Below, piece by piece: positions 9,536 to 27,912 of a DNA stretch of 64,000 nt. The first letter of the stretch is position 1. The number at the start of each line of letters is the position of its first letter. The stretch spans positions 1 to 64,000 of the IMG/VR virus record IMGVR_UViG_2939319381_000001; one strand, written 5' to 3'. Below the pieces are notes generated by a model that made no database searches, was not told the DNA's origin, and saw only the letters and a list, made by a program, of their open reading frames with translations. The stretch is from a virus (taxonomy: Duplodnaviria > Caudoviricetes). Made by a program: the position numbers and the translations under genes.

Positions 9536-9568
9536 CGTATTGCTATGCAATACGAGAATGGGTATGGT
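9536..9568 (+). promoter_or_regulatory. operator palindrome CGTATTGC-TAT-GCAATACG overlapping promoter TTGCTA-N17-TATGGT
   Basis: Second copy of the repeated operator/promoter. Confidence 0.8.
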
Positions 9569-15361: not shown

Positions 15362-15733
15362 GTGCCTGATCTGAGCGACGGCGACGAGCTGGCGGAGACC
15401 CCGGGGTACCGGGAGCCGACACCGCTCGAGAAGAACCGGGCCCTGGAGGAGTGGCTGCGCTGGCAGCTCGGGCAGGTCCAGGGCCGGATCCGGGATCTGG
15501 AAGCGCAGGAGGTGGAGGATCGGCGGCGCCGCCAGCAGGCGTACGCCGGGCTCCACTGGAAGATCCAACCCCAGCGGTCGAACGAGGTGGCGCTCCTCCA
15601 CCGCGGGGACTGCGGGACGTACCCGGTGCAGAGCGGGTTCATCGGCGAGAAGGACGCACTGATCGCGTTGTCGATGCCGGAGGTCGAGACGTGCCCGATC
15701 TGCCGGCCGGAGACCGGGCTCACCCAGGGGTAG
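15362..15733 (+). CDS. DUF6233-like protein
   Basis: Coiled coil followed by LLHRGDC...CPICRPET. Confidence 0.7.
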   Translation: MPDLSDGDELAETPGYREPTPLEKNRALEEWLRWQLGQVQGRIRDLEAQEVEDRRRRQQAYAGLHWKIQPQRSNEVALLHRGDCGTYPVQSGFIGEKDALIALSMPEVETCPICRPETGLTQG

Positions 15734-15818
15734 GCGTGGCGGCCGCCATCGCGGCGGACGTCGGATTGTCGACCGCCCGGATCTACCAGATTCTGGGTAG
15801 GCGGCGCTGATCAGTCCG

Positions 15819-15866
15819 GGACGCAGAGATACCCCCCCAGGCACGGGTGGGGGTATCTCTGCGTCC
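15819..15866. terminator. bidirectional terminator where the rightward and leftward arms converge
   Basis: Perfect 18-bp inverted repeat GGACGCAGAGATACCCCC / GGGGGTATCTCTGCGTCC. Confidence 0.8.
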
Positions 15867-15870
15867 GGGG

Positions 15871-16143
15871 TCAGCCGACCCGGACCTCGATCTCATCGGC
15901 TTCGGCCCGCGCAGGCACCCGGTACACAACGCTGAGCACCGCGTGGGCAGGGATCAGGAACGCGTCGTACTCGCCGCCCTGGTCCCGCTGGTCGGCCGGT
16001 CGGGGGTCGACGTGGAGGAAGCCGCCCTCGACCGCGACCCGTACGTTATGCAGGCGGTCCAGCAGCTGGCTGGAGGCGTTGGGGTTCGGGATCAGCTTGC
16101 CGTCGAGGTCCAGCAGGGTGACGGTGCGCCAGTTCAGTGCCAT
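15871..16143 (-). CDS. hypothetical protein
   Basis: AAGGA RBS; beta-rich small protein. Confidence 0.55.
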   Translation of the reverse strand: MALNWRTVTLLDLDGKLIPNPNASSQLLDRLHNVRVAVEGGFLHVDPRPADQRDQGGEYDAFLIPAHAVLSVVYRVPARAEADEIEVRVG

Positions 16144-16246
16144 GGGAAGGGTCCTTGCGTCGCTCGGGTGGGCCGGTGGTGGCATCGGCTTCGAGGCGGG
16201 ACCACCACCGGGTGTACAGCCTGGCACGAGGCACTGACACTGCGGG

Positions 16247-16537
16247 CTACGCCCGGGAGAAGGCCACCATCTGCCAGCCCGAAGCCTCGTCCAGTTCCCC
16301 GAGCTCCAGGGTGTACTGGTGCCGCATCGCGATGAGGTCGATCTGCTTGAGGTACTGGGCGTTGACGTAGCGCGCCGCAGGGACAGCGTTCAGGGCGGAG
16401 GCCAGGGACAGCTCCTGGTCGATGGCGCCGCACGTGTATCCGGCGACGAACGCCGCGTCGTCGAAGGGGCCGCCCTGCGACTGCACCAGCACCATCGGCA
16501 TGGCCAGCTCGTACTCGGTGTCCTGCTCGTCGCTCAT
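16247..16537 (-). CDS. hypothetical phage protein (GGPFDDAAFVAGY)
   Basis: GGAG RBS; coupled to the upstream ORF. Confidence 0.65.
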   Translation of the reverse strand: MSDEQDTEYELAMPMVLVQSQGGPFDDAAFVAGYTCGAIDQELSLASALNAVPAARYVNAQYLKQIDLIAMRHQYTLELGELDEASGWQMVAFSRA

Positions 16538-17103
16538 GCTTCTCCGCCTTGTAGTTCTGCGAGCCGCGCCGCGCCCTTGTCAGTGAGCCAGCTGGTGCGG
16601 AGGCTGACCCCGCAGTCCAGGTGCCCGCGGTCGTCTTCCCGGACGTACGCGGCGTTGACGACGTTCTCCGGGTAGACCGTGCACAGCGTCCACCACGCCC
16701 CCAGAAGAGCGCCTCTGTAATCGCCGGGCGTGACAGGGCGGCCGCGGTGGTCGTGGATGGCTTGGAGTAGAGCGAGGGTGGTGATGTCGGCGCGCTTCGG
16801 TGCCGGGGGCGCGGTACGCAGGGGGACGTGGCGTACCGCCTTGGCGGCCTGGTTGGGCTGGTCCGGGTCGACGTACCGGTGCCCGTCGGCGTTGCGGAGG
16901 AACTCGGTGTACTCGATCAGCTGGGTGCCGTCGGGATCGGTGACGATGCTGATCGGGTCGAGGGCAACGTCCTTGGGGTCGATTCCGTGCTCGCGCACCC
17001 ACGCCTGGAGCTTGGTGTTGCGTGGGGTGCCGAGCAGGTAGGGCCAGGTCTCCGGGGTGGCGAGGAGAACCCGGGTGTCGGCGGTCTCCGGTGTGGCGGT
17101 CAC
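16534..17103 (-). CDS. hypothetical protein
   Basis: GGAGG RBS and GTG start; C-terminal CGVSLRTSWLTDKG. Confidence 0.55.
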   Translation of the reverse strand: MTATPETADTRVLLATPETWPYLLGTPRNTKLQAWVREHGIDPKDVALDPISIVTDPDGTQLIEYTEFLRNADGHRYVDPDQPNQAAKAVRHVPLRTAPPAPKRADITTLALLQAIHDHRGRPVTPGDYRGALLGAWWTLCTVYPENVVNAAYVREDDRGHLDCGVSLRTSWLTDKGAARLAELQGGEA

Positions 17104-17597
17104 GCCCCCTCCCCTTCGCCCGGCTGCGGCACGCTCTTGGAGTGGTGGAGTGGGGTGGTGGCGATGTCGCCGGCGGCCTGCTGCTCGGACAGGAGGTAGT
17201 ACGTCTTCCCGCCGTCCGTGGAGAACGCCTCGCCGTTGCGGTTGGACTGCCACAAGGGGAGGGGGGTCATGCCTTCGGCGTGCCGGTCGATCCACTCTGC
17301 GGGGTCGTCGGTGAGGTCGGTGAGGGGCTGGAACCGCAGGAGGCGCTCCAGGTACTGGGCGCCTGCGTGGGCGCTACTTCCGCTGTGGCCCATGTCGGCG
17401 AAGGCTTGGACGACTTTGCAGAGGCCGCGGATGGTGTCGCGGTCTTCGCCGAGGATGCGGAGTTCGCGGCGGGCGTGGGCGACGAGGTTGGACTCGACGG
17501 CCCGCGGAGCGGCGCTGCGGCGTCGGGGCGGGCCGGGGGTCGGTTCGAGGGCTCCGGGGATGGCGGGGGCGTCGTTGTTGCTGAGGGAAGGGCTCAT
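17100..17597 (-). CDS. conserved phage protein of unknown function (GHSGSSA...PLTDLT...EW)
   Basis: Motif string typical of a widespread phage family. Confidence 0.65.
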   Translation of the reverse strand: MSPSLSNNDAPAIPGALEPTPGPPRRRSAAPRAVESNLVAHARRELRILGEDRDTIRGLCKVVQAFADMGHSGSSAHAGAQYLERLLRFQPLTDLTDDPAEWIDRHAEGMTPLPLWQSNRNGEAFSTDGGKTYYLLSEQQAAGDIATTPLHHSKSVPQPGEGEGA

Positions 17598-17673
17598 ACG
17601 TCCATGCTGTGCCCGCCAGCCCGGTTTGTTGCCCCCGGTCGGGTGCGGGCCGACGCGGGGGCGCAGGGGCGGG

Positions 17674-18723
17674 TCAGGCGTGCCAGGTTCCGCGGATCGC
17701 GGCGGTGGTGAAGCCGGGCCCGTAGGCGACCATGACGCCGCGGGCACCAGCGGTGGGCGGTTCGGTGTACGTCCGCTCCAGGATCCGCAGCACCGACGGC
17801 CCGCCGAGGTTGCCCTCCTGCTCCAGGGTGTCGGTGCTGTGCCGGGTGTCGTGGGCGTCGAGACCGAGCGCGCGGGCGGTGTCGTTGATGATGCGCTGCG
17901 ACCCAGGGTGGATGACCCCGAAGTCCACCAGGTCCGACCCGAGCCACTTCATGAGGTCGGGGAGGACGTCGTCGGCCGCGGTCAAGGCCTGCTTGGTGGA
18001 GTCGAAGTGGAAGCCGGCGTGGTCGACGCGCCCGTTGTAGCGGGTGAGGCTGTCCGGGAGGACGTGCTCGTACGTGTCCGCGGGGGAGCCGACACGGAGG
18101 CCGGGGCCGAGGGGCTGGGCGGTGACGATGGTCGCGGCCGCGCTGTCCCCGAAGAGGGCCTTGTAGATCATGTGCTCAACGGCGTCGTCGGCGTGGTTGT
18201 AGATCGCGCTGATGGTTTCCGCGGCGACGACGAGGACGCGGGCGTCGGGCCGGGCGGTGACCATGTCGACGGCGCGGATCAGGGCTTGGGTGCCGCCGGC
18301 GCAGGCCAGGGTGGTGAGGGCGACACGCCGTACGTCCGCGCGGAGCCCGAGGCGCTCCACCAGGTGGATGTCGAGGTTGGGGACGGCCCAGCCGGTGGAG
18401 TGGGTGGTGATGATGGCGTCCACGTCGGCGGGCTCGAGGTGGTGGTGGGCCAGGGTTCGGTGGGCTGCTTCGGTGGCGAGGTTGAGGGCGTCGCCGAACG
18501 CGGCTGCGGACCGGTCATCGATGCCGGCGTCTCCGGAGACGGTGGGGGCGTCCAGGGGCCGGGTGAAGTAGCGCGTCTTCACTCCGGTGTTGGCGACGAT
18601 GCGGAGGATCGCGCCGAGCTTGGGGTGAGCAGCGTGGTGGTGGCGGATGTCGTCGGCGATCTGGGTGGTGGTGACCTGGTGGGTGGGGAACACGGTGGCG
18701 GGGCGGTGTATGTAGGCGGGCAC
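17674..18723 (-). CDS. type III polyketide synthase (chalcone-synthase superfamily; germicidin/violapyrone synthase-like)
   Basis: Intact triad C141 (LACAGG), H272 (IHPGS), N305 (GNLGG); ALFGD gatekeeper; YGPGF loop; GGAGG RBS. Confidence 0.95.
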   Translation of the reverse strand: MPAYIHRPATVFPTHQVTTTQIADDIRHHHAAHPKLGAILRIVANTGVKTRYFTRPLDAPTVSGDAGIDDRSAAAFGDALNLATEAAHRTLAHHHLEPADVDAIITTHSTGWAVPNLDIHLVERLGLRADVRRVALTTLACAGGTQALIRAVDMVTARPDARVLVVAAETISAIYNHADDAVEHMIYKALFGDSAAATIVTAQPLGPGLRVGSPADTYEHVLPDSLTRYNGRVDHAGFHFDSTKQALTAADDVLPDLMKWLGSDLVDFGVIHPGSQRIINDTARALGLDAHDTRHSTDTLEQEGNLGGPSVLRILERTYTEPPTAGARGVMVAYGPGFTTAAIRGTWHA

Positions 18724-19004
18724 GACATCCTCCGGCAGGCCTGGGCGGCTGGTTCCGCCAACCTAAGGCACACCGTGCGGGGTATTGCCCCTGATCAGAG
18801 GCCTGAAATACGGGGCGTACGGTCGGTTTCCGTTTGCTGGGGCGGGTGTGACCGGTGGTACGTGTGGGGTGGTTCCTGCGGTTCCAAGGCCCGGTTTCGG
18901 GCGCGGGCGGGCATGGCCTGGCGTGGTGGCGGACGCATGGGTGAGGCCACCTGCGCGATGGGGGAGGGGCGTGCAGGTGGCCTCAGTCGATGGGTGTCGG
19001 TTTG

Positions 19005-19841
19005 TCAGGTGGAGTCGGCGCGGAGGGCGGGGGTGCGGGCGTGGGCTCGCTGCTCCCCGGCGTGGAATATCAGCACGATGAGGCGGGCGCCGGGTGCGGC
19101 CATCGGCTGCGCTGCGCACATCGTGACCCAGCCGGGGCCGGCTTCGGCGTGGAGGAGGGGGCGTTCGTCGCCGTCGGGGTGGATGTGGGCGACGGATCCG
19201 GTCCAGATCGGGGCGCAGTCGGGGTCGTTGAGGACTTCCTCCTCGAGGCCGCGGAGGATCGGGTCGTCGGGGCGTGCGGCAAGAGCGGCCCGGAGCTGGG
19301 GGAGGACGAGGGGTGCCCACGCGGTGTGCCAGTCGGTGAGCATGTGGCGTCCGGCCGGCTCCAACACCATCCACCGCATGGTGTTGCGGGGTACCTGGCC
19401 GCCGGGAAACAGGGCGGCGAACGGGGCGTTGTGGGCTATGAGCTCCCAGGAGGCGTCGGTGATGTACGCGGGGTGGTGCATCCCGTCAACGGCTTCCTGC
19501 CACACTCCGGGGACCTGCTTCCCGGAGGCGGGGGTGAGGGGGCCGGGGGGGTCTCCGATGCCGGCGTACCGGCAGAGGCTGGTCCACTCCTGCTCGTTGA
19601 GGGCGAAGAGGGCGGCGACGGCGCGGAGGTAGTCGGCGGGCGGGTTGGGGTAACGGCCGGACTCGAGGCGCCGGTACGTGCCGCCGGTACGGCCGGTGAG
19701 TTCGTCGACTTGGTACTGGGTCAGGCCGGGTGCGCGGAGGCCTTGTTTGCTGGGGCGGGAAAATCCGTGTCCGGCGGGGTCGATGAGTCCCCGACGCTCC
19801 GTCAGGAGTTTACGAAGGGCATCCTTACTAACCTTGCTCAT
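19005..19841 (-). CDS. MmyB-family regulator (XRE HTH plus PAS-like ligand-binding domain)
   Basis: LRKLLTERRGLIDP...GLRAPGLTQYQVDEL...YRRLESGR; C-terminal PAYITDASWELIAHN...NTMRW. Confidence 0.9.
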   Translation of the reverse strand: MSKVSKDALRKLLTERRGLIDPAGHGFSRPSKQGLRAPGLTQYQVDELTGRTGGTYRRLESGRYPNPPADYLRAVAALFALNEQEWTSLCRYAGIGDPPGPLTPASGKQVPGVWQEAVDGMHHPAYITDASWELIAHNAPFAALFPGGQVPRNTMRWMVLEPAGRHMLTDWHTAWAPLVLPQLRAALAARPDDPILRGLEEEVLNDPDCAPIWTGSVAHIHPDGDERPLLHAEAGPGWVTMCAAQPMAAPGARLIVLIFHAGEQRAHARTPALRADST

Positions 19842-19885
19842 GTGCTCGTATTCCCCCGTGTATGAGGCATGCGGTACTGGTGGAA

Positions 19886-19920
19886 AGCCTAGTTGGCGCC
19901 ATGGTTTTTAGCGCTAAAAA
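19886..19920 (-). promoter_or_regulatory. promoter of the MmyB-like gene with palindrome TTTTTAGCGCTAAAAA over the -35 region
   Basis: -10 TAGGCT at 19891-19886; perfect 16-bp palindrome at 19905-19920. Confidence 0.6.
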
Positions 19921-20258
19921 GTTGCCCTAGAAAAGTGGCTGTTTACCGGTGATGCTGGCGTGGTGTCCCGCTGGCCTGCGGAGTCTCGCAGCGCCCTGGG
20001 CGGGCGGGGCATGTGTGGGATTCCCGGCCATTCCGTGTGAGCGGTGTGCGGTGTGGTCACGCAGCGGGAATTCCGTTGCCCGTCTGGAACGGTGGCGGGA
20101 AGGGCTTGACCGGCAGACCGGTATTCCACCCCATAGGCGGGTGGGGCTTCGCAGCACGGTCTGTTGGTCCGGCTCTTCCGGTGGCCTTCCCGGCATCCCC
20201 CTGCCGGGTGGGGCGGGCGCGAGGCGCGGCTGGTACTTAGGTGCCGGCCGCGCCTTCG

Positions 20259-22147
20259 TCATGTCCGGGGCGGCCGGGTGCCGGTATGGGTGCACTGCCC
20301 GGCGGTGAGACGGCGGATCGTGGATTCGTCGGCGCGGTTCTCGGCGACAACGTGGTCGACGATCTGGTCGAGGCTGTAGTCCTCGCCCGGCTCGGCCCAG
20401 CCGAGGACCTGGGTGGCGAGGGTGTGGCGGCCGCGGCCGATGGTGTTGATCAGGTCGACGGTGGCCTTCATCAGGCCTGCGTGGCCCGCCTCCTGCGCCC
20501 GCACCAGTTCGGCGAGTTGCTCGGCTTCCTTGGGGAGGATCACCCCGCGTAGCAGCCGGTCGAGGAGGCGGTGGACGGGATCGGGCTGGGTGGTCACGTT
20601 TCCTCCTCGGGTACGGCGGTGATGGCGAGGCCCCATCCGAGGTAGCGGAACGCCGCCTGGATGGTGCTGATGGGGTGGTCGGCGATGTGGGTGGCGAGGG
20701 CGTGCGCGGCCGGGTCGTCGGGCTCTATCGGGTCGGCGGCCGGGCGCTCGGGCTGAGTGGTCACGGCCCCTCCTCTCGGTGTGCGGCGTTGATCTGGTCG
20801 CGTATGGCTTCGGCTCCGGTGAGGAACTCCCGCCACCTGGTGGGTTCGGGCCCGGTCTTGCCGAAGTGGACGCGGAGTTCGGCGACAAGGACGTCGTCTC
20901 CGGGGTTTTCGTCGCCGTGGCCGAGGGCTTCGGACAGGACGTCACGGAACCGGTCGGCTGCACCGGCGGCGGTCTGCCTGGCCTGCCGCTGGTCTTCGAG
21001 GTCGGCACGAAGGTGGGCGAGCTCGTCGGGCTGGGGCTGGGTCGTCACCGGGCCCCCTCGGTGTCGTCGAGGGCGAGCTGCCCGGGGGCCTGCATGACGG
21101 GCTCGGGCGGCATGAGGGTGTCGAAGTGGGCGCGGTGGGCGTCGTCGTCGGCCGGGCAGATGTGCCGTTCGGTGAGGTCGCGGGCAAGGACTGCCCACCC
21201 GGTGGTACGGACGGTCTGTTCGGCGGTGGACGCGTCGGCGAACCAGACGGGCTCTTCGGTCTCGGGGCCGACGTACTCGGTGTGGCAGATGTCGCAGGTG
21301 ATGACGTAGCAGTGCTGGAGGCGTGTGGCCACGGTGGTCCTTCCGGGTTGGGGGGTGGCCGCCACACAGCGGCCATCCGGCGGGGACAGGTCAGACAGCG
21401 GGCTGGTCGAGGGCGGCGCGGATGCGGGCGGTCGCTGCCCGGACGGTGGGGTCGGTGGTCGCCGCGTCGATGGCGTCGCACTCGGTGCGGATGGTGGCGG
21501 CGAGGGTGCGGGCGGCACGGAGGGCGATGGTTCGGGCGGCGCGTTCGCCGGGTCCGGGCTGGGTGGTACGGCGGCGGGGCGGGTTGGGCATGTCGTGGTC
21601 CTTCCGGGTTGGGGTGGCCGCCCCACCCGGGGCGGCCACCCAGCAGGGGCAGTCAGGCGGCGGGGGCGGTTCGGGTCACGAGAGCGAGTGACAGAGCGAC
21701 CAGTTCGTCGTCGGGGCGGGGGTCGTCTCGCCACCGCAGGACGGAGCAGCCGGTGATGGACCCCTCGTCGATCTCGTGCAGGGTCGGCTCCTGCCAGGCG
21801 CGGTCCTGCCAGTCCTCGGAGGGAGGCGTGGCCCCGCCCCGGGCGTTGTCCGGCCATGAGACCAGTACGGTCCGCTCAACCAGAGCGGCGGTGAAATCGG
21901 CGGGCTCGGTCATGGTGGTCTCCTCGGTGGGCCGGGATCACCCGGCAGCAGGGGCGGGGGTGGTGGTGTGCGGCGCGAGGCCGAGCACGATGGCGGAGGT
22001 GCAGGGCCAGGGGGCGTATCGGCGGTGTGCGGGCCGGCTCCCCATCCGGGGGTAGTTCCAGCGGCAGCGGGCGCATACGACGGCCCGGTTGGGCCAGTCG
22101 CCGCCGACCTCTATGGGCTCGTGGCCGAACGTCTCGGGCGTGGTCAT
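20259..22147 (-). other. cluster of about 7 small leftward hypothetical CDS (approx. 20259-20597, 20594-20763, 20761-21048, 21045-21329, 21391-21591, 21653-21913, 21938-22147)
   Basis: Short coupled ORFs with RBSs and phage-like starts (MTTQP...). Confidence 0.55.
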
Positions 22148-22150
22148 CGT

Positions 22151-22290
22151 TTGACGTCCTCCCAGCCCTTTCGGGGCGGGGATTCCCTCACTGGCGCTCG
22201 TTGTGGCGGAGCGCCTTGAGCTGGGTTCCTGTTTCATCGGCCGATGCCTCCGCAAGCGGAGGAGTTACTCAGCCTCCGCAGGCGTTTACG
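22151..22290 (-). ncRNA. putative TnpB omegaRNA scaffold / IS605-type right end ending in TCAA
   Basis: Minus-strand GGGAATCCCCGCCCCGAAAGGGCTGGGAGGACGTCAA hairpin directly 3' of tnpB; 5' boundary uncertain. Confidence 0.7.
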
Positions 22291-23426
22291 GTCTCCGCCC
22301 GTCCGGCGGCGACCTTGCGTCCTTCGGTCTTGATGTTGCGTGCGGCGTTGAAGTCGCGGTCGTGCACGGCCCCACAGTTGAGGCAAGTCCACGTCCGGAC
22401 CTTGAGGGGCTTCGGGCCGTCCTTGAACCCGCAAGCCGAACAGAGCTGCGAGGAGGGAAAGAACCGGTCCACCCGTGCGAAGGTGCGGCCGTAGCGCGTG
22501 GCCTTGTACTTCAGCATTCCGACGAAGGTGGACCATCCGGCGTCGTGCACAGACTTCGCGAGACGGGTCCGTCCGAGACCGCTCACTGCAAGGTCTTCCA
22601 CGTACACCGCTTGGTTCTCGCGGATGATCGTGGTCGACAGCTTGTGGTGAAAGTCCCGGCGGGCATTCGTTGTTCGGGCGTGCGCCCGTGCAACCTTGAC
22701 CACGGCCTTCTTGCGGTTGCTGCTTCCCTTCGCTTTCCGGGAAAGGCTCTGCTGCGCCTTGCGGAGGCGCTTCTCTGCCCGCCGGAACAGCTTCGGCGCA
22801 GCCACTTTCCGACCGTCGGAGAGGACCGCGAAGTGCGTGAGACCCAGGTCGATCCCCACCTCGCCGTCCGCTTCCGGTAGCACCTCGGACGGGTCGGTCT
22901 GGATCACGAACGAGACGAAGTAGCGTCCGGCCGCATCCTTGATCACGGTCACCGACGAGGGGGCGGACGGCAGCTTCCTGGACCAGCGCACCGAGACGTC
23001 GCCGACCTTCGGCAGGCGAAGCTTCCCGTTCGGTAGCACCCGGAAGCAGTCCGACTTGGTGTACCGGGCTACTTGCCGGTTGTCCCGCTTCGACCTGAAG
23101 CGGGGCTCGCCGACCTTGGGCCCTTTCCGTTTCCCCGACATGGAGTCGAAGAAGTTCCGGTACGCCGCGTCGAGGTCGCGCAGGGCTTGCTGCATGACAC
23201 CGACGGGGGCGTTGACCAGCCACGCTCGTTCGGGGGTGCGCTTCGCCTGGGTGATGAGCGTCTTGGACAGCTCGCCCGACCTGGGGAAGGGCACCTTCGC
23301 GGCGTGCGCATCCTTCCGAATGCGCAGAGCGTCGTTGTACACCACCCGCGCGCACCCGAACGTCCGGGCGAGCGCTGCGCGCTGGCCGGACGTCGGGTAG
23401 ACGCGGAAGTTGTACCGAAGCTGCAT
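22269..23426 (-). CDS. tnpB: IS200/IS605-family RNA-guided nuclease TnpB
   Basis: N-terminal YNFRVYPT..Q...FGCARVVYN; RuvC residues GIDLG, VEDL, DRDFNAARNI; CSAC/CLNC zinc finger. Confidence 0.97.
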   Translation of the reverse strand: MQLRYNFRVYPTSGQRAALARTFGCARVVYNDALRIRKDAHAAKVPFPRSGELSKTLITQAKRTPERAWLVNAPVGVMQQALRDLDAAYRNFFDSMSGKRKGPKVGEPRFRSKRDNRQVARYTKSDCFRVLPNGKLRLPKVGDVSVRWSRKLPSAPSSVTVIKDAAGRYFVSFVIQTDPSEVLPEADGEVGIDLGLTHFAVLSDGRKVAAPKLFRRAEKRLRKAQQSLSRKAKGSSNRKKAVVKVARAHARTTNARRDFHHKLSTTIIRENQAVYVEDLAVSGLGRTRLAKSVHDAGWSTFVGMLKYKATRYGRTFARVDRFFPSSQLCSACGFKDGPKPLKVRTWTCLNCGAVHDRDFNAARNIKTEGRKVAAGRAETVNACGG

Positions 23427-25124: not shown

Positions 25125-25157
25125 ATGATACCGCGAAACGTATTGCATAGCCATACG
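25125..25157 (-). promoter_or_regulatory. operator CGTATTGC-ATA-GCCATACG overlapping leftward promoter TGGCTA-N17-TATCAT
   Basis: Third copy (one mismatch) at 25139-25157. Confidence 0.75.
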
Positions 25158-27879: not shown

Positions 27880-27912
27880 AACATACCCACTCTCGTATTG
27901 CTAAGCAATACG
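27880..27912 (-). promoter_or_regulatory. operator CGTATTGC-TAA-GCAATACG overlapping leftward promoter TTGCTT-N17-TATGTT
   Basis: Fourth copy at 27894-27912; spacer AGAGTGGG identical to copy 1. Confidence 0.8.

Follow-up and report, generated by a model that had tools for sequence, protein, structure and literature searches.

A vioA/vioB-like polyketide synthase and regulator pair on a pZL12-type Streptomyces plasmid-phage

The DNA analysed here (the window) is a stretch of 64,000 nucleotides from an element whose genome is one 91,308-bp contig. Two adjacent genes on its minus strand, one for a polyketide synthase (PKS) of type III and one for a regulator with an MmyB-type ligand-binding domain, were analysed together with their surroundings, in which the following features were recognized.

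15810..15880, no strand assigned: long perfect-stem hairpin at the junction of the leftward arm (with the pair) and the rightward arm
16247..17103, minus strand: two small ORFs (16534-17103 and 16247-16537), co-oriented with the pair
17100..17597, minus strand: gene of the Tad3 family (inhibitors of type I Thoeris), 165 aa; PF25185 at 111.3 bits (cut-off 27), phrog_14697
17674..18723, minus strand: type III polyketide synthase gene, 349 aa, GTG start; counterpart of VioA, the alkyl-alpha-pyrone (violapyrone) synthase
18760..18798, minus strand: conserved PKS upstream region, from a comparison of 16 loci
18943..18984, minus strand: terminator-like hairpin just past the regulator stop codon, from folding
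19005..19841, minus strand: gene for a regulator with an XRE-HTH and an MmyB-type ligand-binding domain, 278 aa; counterpart of VioB
19886..19931, minus strand: candidate promoter/operator in the conserved region 5' of the regulator

The PKS open reading frame matched the Pfam families Chal_sti_synt_N (PF00195, 83.9 bits) and Chal_sti_synt_C (PF02797, 31.4 bits) above the cut-off of 27, and both thiolase-fold domains lie in one stand-alone protein of 349 aa, the arrangement that marks a type III PKS. The triad C141/H272/N305 was complete, and its columns matched the Cys, His and Asn of the S. coelicolor enzyme 1u0m in an alignment. Together, the Pfam matches, the triad and this alignment bore out an earlier note on the DNA, which had proposed an intact type III PKS. 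The protein was 84% identical to its counterpart in phage ZL12 (pZL12) and 73% identical to the PKS proteins of pCQ3 and pCQ4 (347 aa for pCQ3.110c). As type III PKSs, the S. coelicolor enzymes Gcs (PDB 3v7i) and THNS/RppA (PDB 1u0m) share its fold and its catalytic triad, and Gcs likewise produces small alkyl-pyrones out of beta-keto-acyl starters, but the sequences are distant (167 and 143 bits, respectively, by phmmer). The genes of both enzymes are chromosomal, and we know of no MmyB-type regulator adjoining either of them.

The regulator matched HTH_31 (PF13560, 30.8 bits; cut-off 27) and MLTR_LBD (PF17765, 70.9 bits; cut-off 26.3), which upheld its earlier description as an XRE protein with an MmyB ligand domain, and both genes lie on the minus strand, co-oriented as described. 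It was 84% identical to the regulator of the pZL12.99/pZL12.100 pair and 65% identical to pCQ4.19c and the pCQ3 regulator. The same architecture, an XRE HTH followed by a PAS-like ligand domain, characterizes the MmyB/MltR regulators (PMC3406030), while a phmmer search against PDB sequences, the solved MltR chain included, yielded no match at E <= 0.001. According to the accessible part of PMC3406030, the MltR crystal structure contains a fatty acid, as the earlier note had stated, and MmyB-type pockets accept head-and-tail lipids. MmyB is a described activator, whereas VioB acts as a repressor (PMC4924298, accessible part). Neither the PKS nor the regulator fell into any PHROGs family, and all 25 copies checked were free of TTA codons (bldA control) in both genes.

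The window has genes for a terminase and for capsid (E-type) and tape-measure proteins, and it matched phage ZL12 (GQ919031) with 84% nucleotide identity across 28% of a 20-kb query. By its tailed-phage genes for packaging and virions, carried on a replicon of plasmid size (~90 kb), and by its relatedness to pZL12, the element is a pZL12/phiZL12-type plasmid-phage, and in this sense the pair is phage-borne, as first stated. The arm with the pair is syntenic with that of pZL12 (pZL12.100/pZL12.99), but the small genes flanking the pair are unlike those of pZL12, and the window has a TnpB insertion at 22269-23426. pZL12 itself reportedly forms virions.

The regulator and the PKS gene are separated by 281 nt in the window. 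A promoter/terminator consensus scan of 16000-20600 returned no promoters and no terminators; since such a scan is geared to sites of the E. coli type, a comparison of orthologous loci and folding were used in its place. Across 16 orthologous loci, TAnnnT-type boxes were conserved 5' of each gene (TAGGCT, 19886-19891; TAGGTT, 18760-18765). Upstream of the regulator, TTTTTAGCGCTAAAAA (19905-19920) forms a perfect palindrome, with TCTAGGGCAAC before it and TAGGCT, a -10-like box, after it, and a T4-5/N6/A4-5 arrangement was seen in most of the orthologous regulator upstream regions compared. We regard this region as a candidate promoter and operator. Upstream of the PKS, a CTGATCAGGGGCAAT box (18784-18798) and a short dyad, GCAC-N3-GTGC, precede the -10-like TAGGTT, and these boxes may well have a regulatory function. 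The hairpin past the regulator stop codon had a dG of -29 kcal/mol (z -5.7, with none of 200 shuffles equally good); hairpins occurred at the equivalent place in relatives with different arm sequences. Being terminator-like, it would divide the regulator and the PKS into two transcription units. The proposal that each gene has its own promoter thus has only indirect support, from the conserved boxes at both genes and the dividing hairpin, whereas the consensus scan returned no promoter for either. The hairpin at the junction of the two arms (dG -53.5 kcal/mol, z -5.0, none of 200 shuffles equally good) is probably a bidirectional terminator.

Downstream, the Tad3-family gene begins 77 nt past the PKS stop in the same orientation, and no significant hairpin was found between them (17598-17680; fold z -1.4). 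Each of the two small ORFs that follow shares 4 nt with the gene just upstream, an overlap suggestive of translational coupling; 16247-16537 belongs to phrog_21481, whose function is unassigned in PHROGs, and neither had a Pfam match. Among the neighbour ORFs scanned (10 by Pfam and 8 by PHROGs), matches were limited to the product of the Tad3-family gene, a protein with DUF6233 and two PHROGs without known function; no tailoring, export or resistance genes were among them, in agreement with the earlier note. The slot behind the PKS varied in the 10 relatives scanned, with Tad3 in 2, DUF7352 in 3 and no Pfam match in 5, and in pZL12 it holds no Pfam-recognizable gene. In 15 annotated loci of relatives, the next gene was co-oriented and 42-253 nt away in 11 and convergent in 4. 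The pair heads a slot of anti-defence genes, a hint that it may matter for infection or for establishment, which a cargo explanation does not call for.

The published vioA/vioB cluster consists of this gene pair as well, with order and orientation unchanged and on a plasmid of the same type (PMC4924298, PMC5898002; for both papers, what follows refers to the accessible parts). This two-gene violapyrone cluster of Streptomyces somaliensis SCSIO ZH66 lies on a circular plasmid of ~85 kb (PMC4924298), which confirmed the plasmid location given in the earlier note. The neighbours of vioA/vioB in Table 1 of PMC4924298 are pCQ3/pCQ4 genes; pCQ3.110c is 95% identical to VioA, and pCQ4.19c and the pCQ3 regulator are 95% and 94% identical to VioB, respectively (PMC4924298). 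With the pCQ3/pCQ4 proteins as proxies for VioA and VioB, the window proteins showed identities of ~73% (PKS) and ~65% (regulator) to those of the vio cluster, and the sizes agreed (PKS, 349 aa against 350 aa; regulator, 278 aa against 272 aa). On this likeness in sequence, the pair is a further copy of the described violapyrone cluster and not a new unit, although given 73% identity its product could have another chain length than that of VioA.

vioA alone suffices for violapyrone production in S. coelicolor M1146, and VioA clusters with Gcs, DpyA and Cpz6, with which it has its types of starters and extenders in common (PMC5898002). Deletion of vioB increased violapyrone B ~8-fold, and VioB is therefore a repressor of production; overproduction is the sole phenotype published in the accessible part of that paper (PMC4924298). 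The ORFs flanking vioA/vioB were irrelevant to the cluster, and the developmental regulator WblA affects vioB and vioA (PMC4924298). The reported activities of violapyrones are anti-MRSA and anti-influenza (PMC4924298, PMC5898002). The cluster was also listed in 21 other genomes (Table S3 of PMC5898002), which may overlap the plasmids counted here. Among actinobacterial prophages, type III PKS genes occurred only in plasmid-borne ones (PMC10023795, accessible part), and the prophage BGCs of its Table S9 may likewise overlap our count. The word "phage" does not occur for the vio plasmid in the accessible text of PMC4924298, and none of the papers found that name vioB or violapyrone mentions MmyB.

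To describe the distribution of the pair, a family of 34 related plasmids with both capsid and terminase was compiled. PKS presence was read from the best 60 of 158 tblastn matches, the weakest of these with 32% identity, and regulator presence from the best 60 of 61 matching records. Among the matches listed, both genes were adjacent in 26 of the 34 plasmids and neither was present in 8; no plasmid had a single gene. Absence was confirmed over the whole record for five of the eight (positive control 4/4), and for CP108843, CP054917 and CP109172 it was judged from the listed matches only. Five further plasmids of 88-102 kb carry the pair (CP109332, CP046906, CP108705, CP109578 and CP108279) and were left out of the 34 because the capsid list and the terminase matches listed both lacked them. 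Presence in 26 of 34 related plasmids (among the matches listed) and a PKS on four IMG/VR viral contigs rule out a sporadic capture, and the minimal module of synthase and ligand-domain regulator on a phage-plasmid, as the earlier note had it, was borne out.

Gene order was constant in the pZL12-family records compared, with the regulator 5' and co-oriented and a gap of 3-964 nt. Capsid identities among relatives were 41-80% and those of the PKS 43-86%, and the two rankings disagreed. Retention in 26 of 34 such highly mosaic relatives, among the matches listed, exceeds what is usual for casual cargo and counts against a cargo reading. Both genes appeared to be under purifying selection, with median dN/dS of 0.29 (PKS) and 0.27 (regulator), values that are rough because strong GC3 bias compresses dS. 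The pair was also present in ordinary chromosomal surroundings in eight species (74-78% identity, contigs of 56-443 kb). These eight loci had no other gene of the element and were flanked by genes for alpha-galactosidase, protease, carboxylesterase, NUDIX and GNAT proteins. The module is therefore not tied to the mobile element or its life cycle, being missing from 8 of the 34 plasmids and present at eight chromosomal-type loci without phage genes. The chromosomal copies formed one clade among the plasmid copies (regulator tree, 100/99); since the trees were midpoint-rooted only, a direction from plasmid-phage to chromosome is suggested, not demonstrated. From these sequences, the plasmid-phage family appears to be the home of the pair. 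A relative of the regulator with 58-61% identity occurred in seven plasmid records outside the best 60 of 158 PKS matches, and no PKS lay within 5 kb of it in the one of these records that was examined. The regulator clade is thus not tied to a PKS everywhere, as those relatives are in records outside the listed PKS matches.

As it stands, the locus is one more copy of a characterized natural-product cluster on a known plasmid-phage type. The survey joins three facts that were published apart, on the two-gene plasmid vio cluster, on pZL12-like plasmids being phages and on PKS prophages being plasmid-borne (PMC10023795). It adds that the vio repressor belongs to the ligand-binding MmyB family and that the two genes stay or go together in a very mosaic phage family, heading an anti-defence slot.

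The regulatory reach of the pair was assessed from copies of its sites. The conserved non-coding boxes, themselves predicted from the comparison of loci, had no further copy in the 91-kb element. The palindrome TTTTTAGCGCTAAAAA and CAGGGGCAAT each occurred once in the 91-kb genome; CTGATCAG occurred twice, and its second copy, at 15807 inside the 15.8-kb hairpin region, was judged to be due to chance. The equivalent palindrome in a Kitasatospora relative had no further copy in that element either. When 3-4 mismatches were allowed in the 13-mer and 16-mer boxes, the extra matches were unconvincing, one of them lying at 17628-17640, just 5' of the Tad3-family gene. The degenerate box yAGGG(s)sAAy was uninformative as a regulon marker (4 genome matches versus ~8 expected by rough arithmetic). 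A 19-bp master operator was present at four sites in the window, at four sites in ZL12 and in CP109524, and it was not found at the pair. It was absent from the pair-bearing pCQ4, pSLE1 and CP108975 (three of five pair-bearing relatives tested) and from five plasmids without the pair. The operator thus does not track the presence of the pair either way. As operators may differ between immunity types, the correlation of operator and pair was dropped as a test of whether the MmyB-type regulator is the binder of this operator.

Because its conserved boxes occur only at the pair, we read the pair as an alkyl-pyrone cargo module that is complete in itself, has a local repressor and is carried by pZL12-type Streptomyces plasmid-phages. 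We consider this explanation as a whole, in which the element profits via the effect of the pyrone on cells, fairly probable. The PKS alone would join a beta-keto-acyl starter from host fatty-acid metabolism to one methyl- or ethyl-malonyl unit, and ring closure would give a 3-alkyl-4-hydroxy-6-alkyl-2-pyrone, as is known for VioA and predicted for the window PKS at 73% identity. The regulator would be transcribed first, from its own promoter, with transcription ending at the hairpin, and would repress the PKS promoter; for VioB the evidence is genetic, and direct binding is predicted. Its MmyB-type pocket probably holds a head-and-tail, lipid-like ligand, either the pyrone or a fatty-acyl precursor, and the ligand would relieve repression. 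Transcription from the PKS promoter probably extends into the small genes of the variable slot behind it, in the window the Tad3-family anti-Thoeris gene. Regulatory reach would be local, and the lysis, maintenance and transfer decisions of the phage would not be controlled by the pair. The payoff to the element would be inhibition of the growth or germination of competitors or kin by the pyrone. The question raised is why a temperate phage-plasmid lineage retains a germicidin-like pyrone synthase under a lipid-sensing repressor.

The earlier note had gone further and proposed that the pair senses lysogen density and biases lysis, maintenance or conjugation. In such a model, carriers would make a diffusible pyrone, and the MmyB-type receptor would control the PKS and other genes of the element. 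In SPbeta-like phages, the signal of arbitrium (AimP/AimR) is a peptide, and its receptor governs a defined lysogeny regulator; neither was seen at the pair, and the common ground is limited to the broad concept of a signal and its receptor on a phage. By analogy, the best precedent for the way such a system would work is PpyS/PluR of Photorhabdus, in which the pyrone of one ketosynthase-type enzyme is sensed by one cytoplasmic transcription factor (PMC4578411, PMC4414361; accessible parts). There, however, PpyS, which does not belong to the type III PKSs, joins a pair of acyl chains head to head, PluR is a LuxR solo and not an XRE/MmyB protein, and the system is chromosomal, not phage-borne. 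In favour of signalling, the synthase and the ligand-domain regulator are adjacent and gained or lost jointly (26 with both, 8 with neither and none with one, among the matches listed), the plasmid-phage family appears to be their home with the chromosomal copies as one clade among plasmid copies, photopyrones are proven signals (PMC4578411, accessible part), MmyB-type pockets bind head-and-tail lipids (PMC3406030, accessible part), and a repressor relieved by the product of its own pathway would yield autoinduction. Yet 8 of 34 otherwise similar plasmids are without the pair, chromosomes keep it with no phage genes around, its conserved boxes have no second copy in the element, the four-site master operator differs in sequence, is not at the pair and is missing in three of five pair-bearing relatives tested, and the phenotype published for the vioB deletion is limited to overproduction (PMC4924298, accessible part). 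Density sensing was thus left unsupported by the pair-less plasmids, the chromosomal copies, the boxes only at the pair and the operator elsewhere, and we regard it as distinctly unlikely. We give as little credence to a private channel in which released pyrone re-enters cells and binds the repressor, turning on the PKS, counter-defence and possibly distant genes, so that density or entry into naive cells would set plasmid life, transfer or lysis. Signalling, if true, would extend phage communication from peptides to polyketides and would be the first polyketide-based phage communication system.

Two further readings concern the slot behind the PKS and the target of the product. The PKS promoter could head a counter-defence operon that fires briefly on entry, because a naive cell is without the repressor, and is then silenced by the regulator, the pyrone being a by-product or an aid. 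The short distance to the Tad3-family gene (77 nt past the PKS stop, with no significant hairpin between), the recurrence of Tad3 in 2 and DUF7352 in 3 of the 10 relatives scanned, a co-oriented gene 42-253 nt after the PKS in 11 of 15 loci and a repressor gene upstream with its own terminator are consistent with such an operon. The next gene is convergent in 4 of 15 loci, however, co-transcription of PKS and Tad3 is a prediction only, and the chromosomal copies retain the pair without such downstream genes; we know of no role of pyrones in defence evasion and hold this reading to be very unlikely. Alternatively, the product could act like germicidin, a close relative among the alkyl-pyrones, and restrain germinating spores or growing hyphae, whether of the host or of neighbours, and so aid an element that spreads through growing mycelium. 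VioA groups with Gcs, DpyA and Cpz6 and their kinds of starter and extender units (PMC5898002), germicidin A is an autoregulatory germination inhibitor (PMC5693915, accessible part), and both vio genes are responsive to WblA, a regulator of development (PMC4924298). On the other hand, the violapyrone activities in the accessible parts of PMC4924298 and PMC5898002 are anti-MRSA and anti-influenza, with no germination assay among them, and no TTA codons link the genes to bldA, and we consider germination control unlikely. Competition or germination control, if true, would provide a clear example of a secondary metabolite that a phage carries in Streptomyces. Control of germination or development bears on what the product acts on and on nothing else, and it fits the mechanism of a cargo module under a local repressor.

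The pair comprised two minus-strand genes in a window of about 70% G+C, which covers the first 64 kb of a single source contig of 91,308 bp. The regulator ORF came first, 281 nt ahead of the PKS ORF; both genes were assigned by ORF and Pfam analysis:

19005-19841, minus strand: XRE-HTH and MmyB-type regulator, 278 aa
17674-18723, minus strand: type III PKS, 349 aa

Both chalcone/stilbene-synthase domains of the PKS exceeded the Pfam cut-offs, and C141, H272 and N305 were present and lined up with the catalytic positions of 1u0m, a solved S. coelicolor enzyme; after it, the best-matching solved structures were those of germicidin synthase (3v7i) and of Pks11, a mycobacterial alpha-pyrone synthase. 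The regulator carried an XRE-type helix-turn-helix and an MmyB-like ligand-binding domain (MLTR_LBD, 70.9 bits, Pfam), and no direct match was obtained against the sequences of solved chains. Given these domains and catalytic residues and the shared strand, the earlier note's observation of a PKS beside an XRE/MmyB regulator is therefore correct in every particular visible in sequence. Both genes were under purifying selection, with median pairwise dN/dS values of 0.29 and 0.27 (300 and 299 pairs).

Among the products encoded in the window are a large terminase, a major capsid protein of E type and a tape-measure protein of 1806 aa. Of the 20-kb stretch around the pair, 28% aligned at 84% identity with Streptomyces phage ZL12, the virion form of plasmid pZL12; the stretch also matched 38 Streptomyces plasmids. 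Since the same 34 plasmids (Streptomyces or Kitasatospora, 85-152 kb) were picked by the capsid and the terminase searches, and given the identity to ZL12, the element is by sequence a plasmid-phage of the pZL12 family. Zhong et al. reportedly described in 2010 that pZL12 forms infectious virions.

A published cluster matched the pair. Huang et al. (2016; PMC4924298) located the S. somaliensis SCSIO ZH66 violapyrone cluster on a circular, roughly 85-kb plasmid, in line with the earlier note, and showed that two genes alone make it up: vioA, for a type III PKS of 350 aa, and vioB, for an XRE-family regulator of 272 aa. Violapyrone B rose about eightfold when vioB was deleted, and deletions of flanking ORFs had no effect. 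Its Table 1 gives as best matches pCQ3.110c for VioA and pCQ4.19c for VioB (95% identity each). Plasmids pCQ3 and pCQ4 were both in our capsid and terminase lists, and the window PKS and regulator were 73% and 65% identical, respectively, to their counterparts on both plasmids. Judged by these matches, the pair is the published cluster, of vioA/vioB type. Hou et al. (2018; PMC5898002) reported that vioA alone yielded violapyrones in S. coelicolor M1146, grouped VioA with Cpz6, DpyA and Gcs, and detected vioAB loci in 21 further genomes, "most" of these loci on plasmids. A type III PKS with no cluster around it was noted on the pZL12-like plasmid pSLE1 (PMC4487206), and when actinobacterial prophages were surveyed, the type III PKS genes all lay in plasmid-borne ones (PMC10023795). 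Within the reach of our literature searches, these papers do not identify the vio plasmid as a phage (the word "phage" does not occur in PMC4924298), and no published link of vioB or violapyrone with MmyB was returned.

Among the matches listed, 26 of the 34 family plasmids held both genes, eight held neither and none held only one; the regulator was upstream and co-oriented in all 26. When entire records were searched, neither protein was found in five of the eight pair-less plasmids (positive control: PKS recovered in 4/4 known carriers). The matching arm of pSAM1, which is among the eight, held only small hypothetical genes. Identities of PKS and capsid ranked differently (for example, CP109524, 86% and 49%; CP108353, 66% and 80%); the pair has thus persisted while modules were extensively exchanged. 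The PKS was also found at 75-85% identity on four IMG/VR viral contigs.

Outside phage, the pair was detected on plasmids of 238-939 kb and, at 74-78% identity, in eight species on 56-443-kb contigs. The eight chromosomal-type loci were flanked by genes for alpha-galactosidase, secreted protease, carboxylesterase, NUDIX and GNAT proteins, and no other gene of the element was found nearby. Because these copies formed one clade (100/99, regulator tree) among the plasmid-phage copies, several of which branched deeper under midpoint rooting, the tree suggests a single capture out of a plasmid-phage.

Local anatomy, with the first four features drawn from a comparison of 16 loci:

19905-19920, upstream of the regulator: conserved T-tract/N6/A-tract palindrome, here TTTTTAGCGCTAAAAA
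upstream of the regulator: conserved TAGGCT box
past the regulator stop: hairpin (dG -29 kcal/mol, z -5.7), arm sequences differing between relatives
upstream of the PKS: conserved CTGATCAGGGGsAAT box, then a short dyad, then a TAGGTT box
17100-17597, minus strand: Tad3-family gene, 165 aa, starting 77 nt downstream of the PKS (Pfam, 111 bits)
15810-15880: very strong hairpin at the meeting point of the rightward and leftward accessory arms (dG -53.5 kcal/mol, z -5.0)

The region after the PKS showed no significant hairpin (z -1.4). Two ORFs with 4-nt overlaps followed the Tad3-family gene, then the hairpin at about 15.8 kb, which adjoins a DUF6233 gene (15362-15733); DUF6233 occurred at the arm junction in relatives too. 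Tad3 proteins inhibit the ThsB sensor of type I Thoeris (review, PMC13728456). The slot behind the PKS held Tad3 in two, DUF7352 in three and nothing recognisable in five of 10 relatives scanned, and resembles an exchange site for counter-defence genes. Tad3 genes in the same slot of relatives lay at L007:3627-4124 and L012:2298-2708 (Tad3 scores, 111-116 bits).

The palindrome and boxes at the pair had no second copy in the 91-kb genome. In a Kitasatospora relative, both genes form an operon (5-nt gap), and the perfect palindrome upstream had no other copy in that plasmid at up to 3 mismatches. Away from the pair, T4-N8-A4 palindromes occurred in the 91-kb genome only as two identical perfect copies of TTTTACGGCCGTAAAA, 1.6 kb apart and outside the window (89121-89136 and 90743-90758 of the complete contig). 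A repeated operator, the 19-bp palindrome CGTATTGCWWAGCAATACG, was present at 2175-2193, 9536-9554, 25139-25157 and 27894-27912 and not at the pair; its GT...AC ends would presumably suit a GntR-type repressor. It occurred four times in ZL12 and in CP109524, and was absent from pCQ4, pSLE1 and CP108975, which carry the pair, and from five pair-less plasmids, and therefore lends no support to a link with the pair. These searches, made with candidate boxes of putative function, tentatively point to local control by the regulator.

We consider it probable that the pair is a self-sufficient alkyl-pyrone module with its own ligand-responsive repressor within the cluster, and that the plasmid-phage family carries this module as selected cargo. 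For VioA/VioB, the class of product, the ability of the PKS to act alone and the repressor role of VioB have been shown (PMC4924298, PMC5898002). At 73% identity the window PKS would perform VioA-type chemistry, and the regulator would bind directly at the PKS promoter and respond to a lipid-like ligand; genes downstream of the PKS may be co-transcribed with it.

The earlier note went further, casting the PKS product as signal and the regulator as receptor in steering the element's life-cycle choices; this interpretation is supported in part. Strict pairing, the MmyB pocket (occupied by a fatty acid in MltR, PMC3406030) and the precedent of photopyrone signalling (PMC4578411) favor such a system, and a synthase with a ligand-domain regulator is indeed retained in 26/34 relatives among the matches listed. 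The steering itself is unlikely, however: a quarter of the family (8/34) does without the pair, chromosomal copies live independently, and the candidate boxes had no distal sites in the 91-kb genome. Two further readings bear on the purpose of the product or the operon. Germicidin-like control of germination by the product has a precedent (PMC5693915) and is somewhat less improbable, though still doubtful. An expression burst on entry into a naive cell, also driving the counter-defence genes behind the PKS, appears the least probable of all. Both the cluster and the plasmid-phage family are already in print. The additions here are small: the link of one to the other, the placing of VioB in the MmyB type, the presence or absence of the pair as a unit, and the slot with anti-defence genes. 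Taken together, they bring the remaining question within reach of a direct test.

Partial loci were also observed. The chromosome of Streptomyces sp. NBC_01590 (L026) held only a PKS fragment (residues 159-347, 67% identical), and the same strain has a 102-kb plasmid, CP109332, with the full pair. On the S. melanogenes linear plasmid NZ_CP108296 (L037), a regulator 61% identical to that of the window had no PKS within 5 kb and was followed by a small ORF, then DUF3995, sigma-factor and SRPBCC genes. Regulators of 58-61% identity were present on six more plasmids, with no PKS there among the matches listed.

Upstream of the regulator, a TnpB/IS605 OrfB-type gene (22269-23426, minus strand; OrfB_IS605, Cas12f1-like TNB and HTH domains) was inserted; it was absent at that place in the close relatives annotated here, and plasmid CP109593 carried a TnpB matching it at 75%. 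In several relatives (NZ_CP032230, NC_013449, NZ_CP134214, NZ_CP108353 and NZ_CP109524), the terminase match was in two pieces or had HNH/LAGLIDADG homing-endonuclease genes annotated under it, which suggests that their terminase gene holds introns or inteins.
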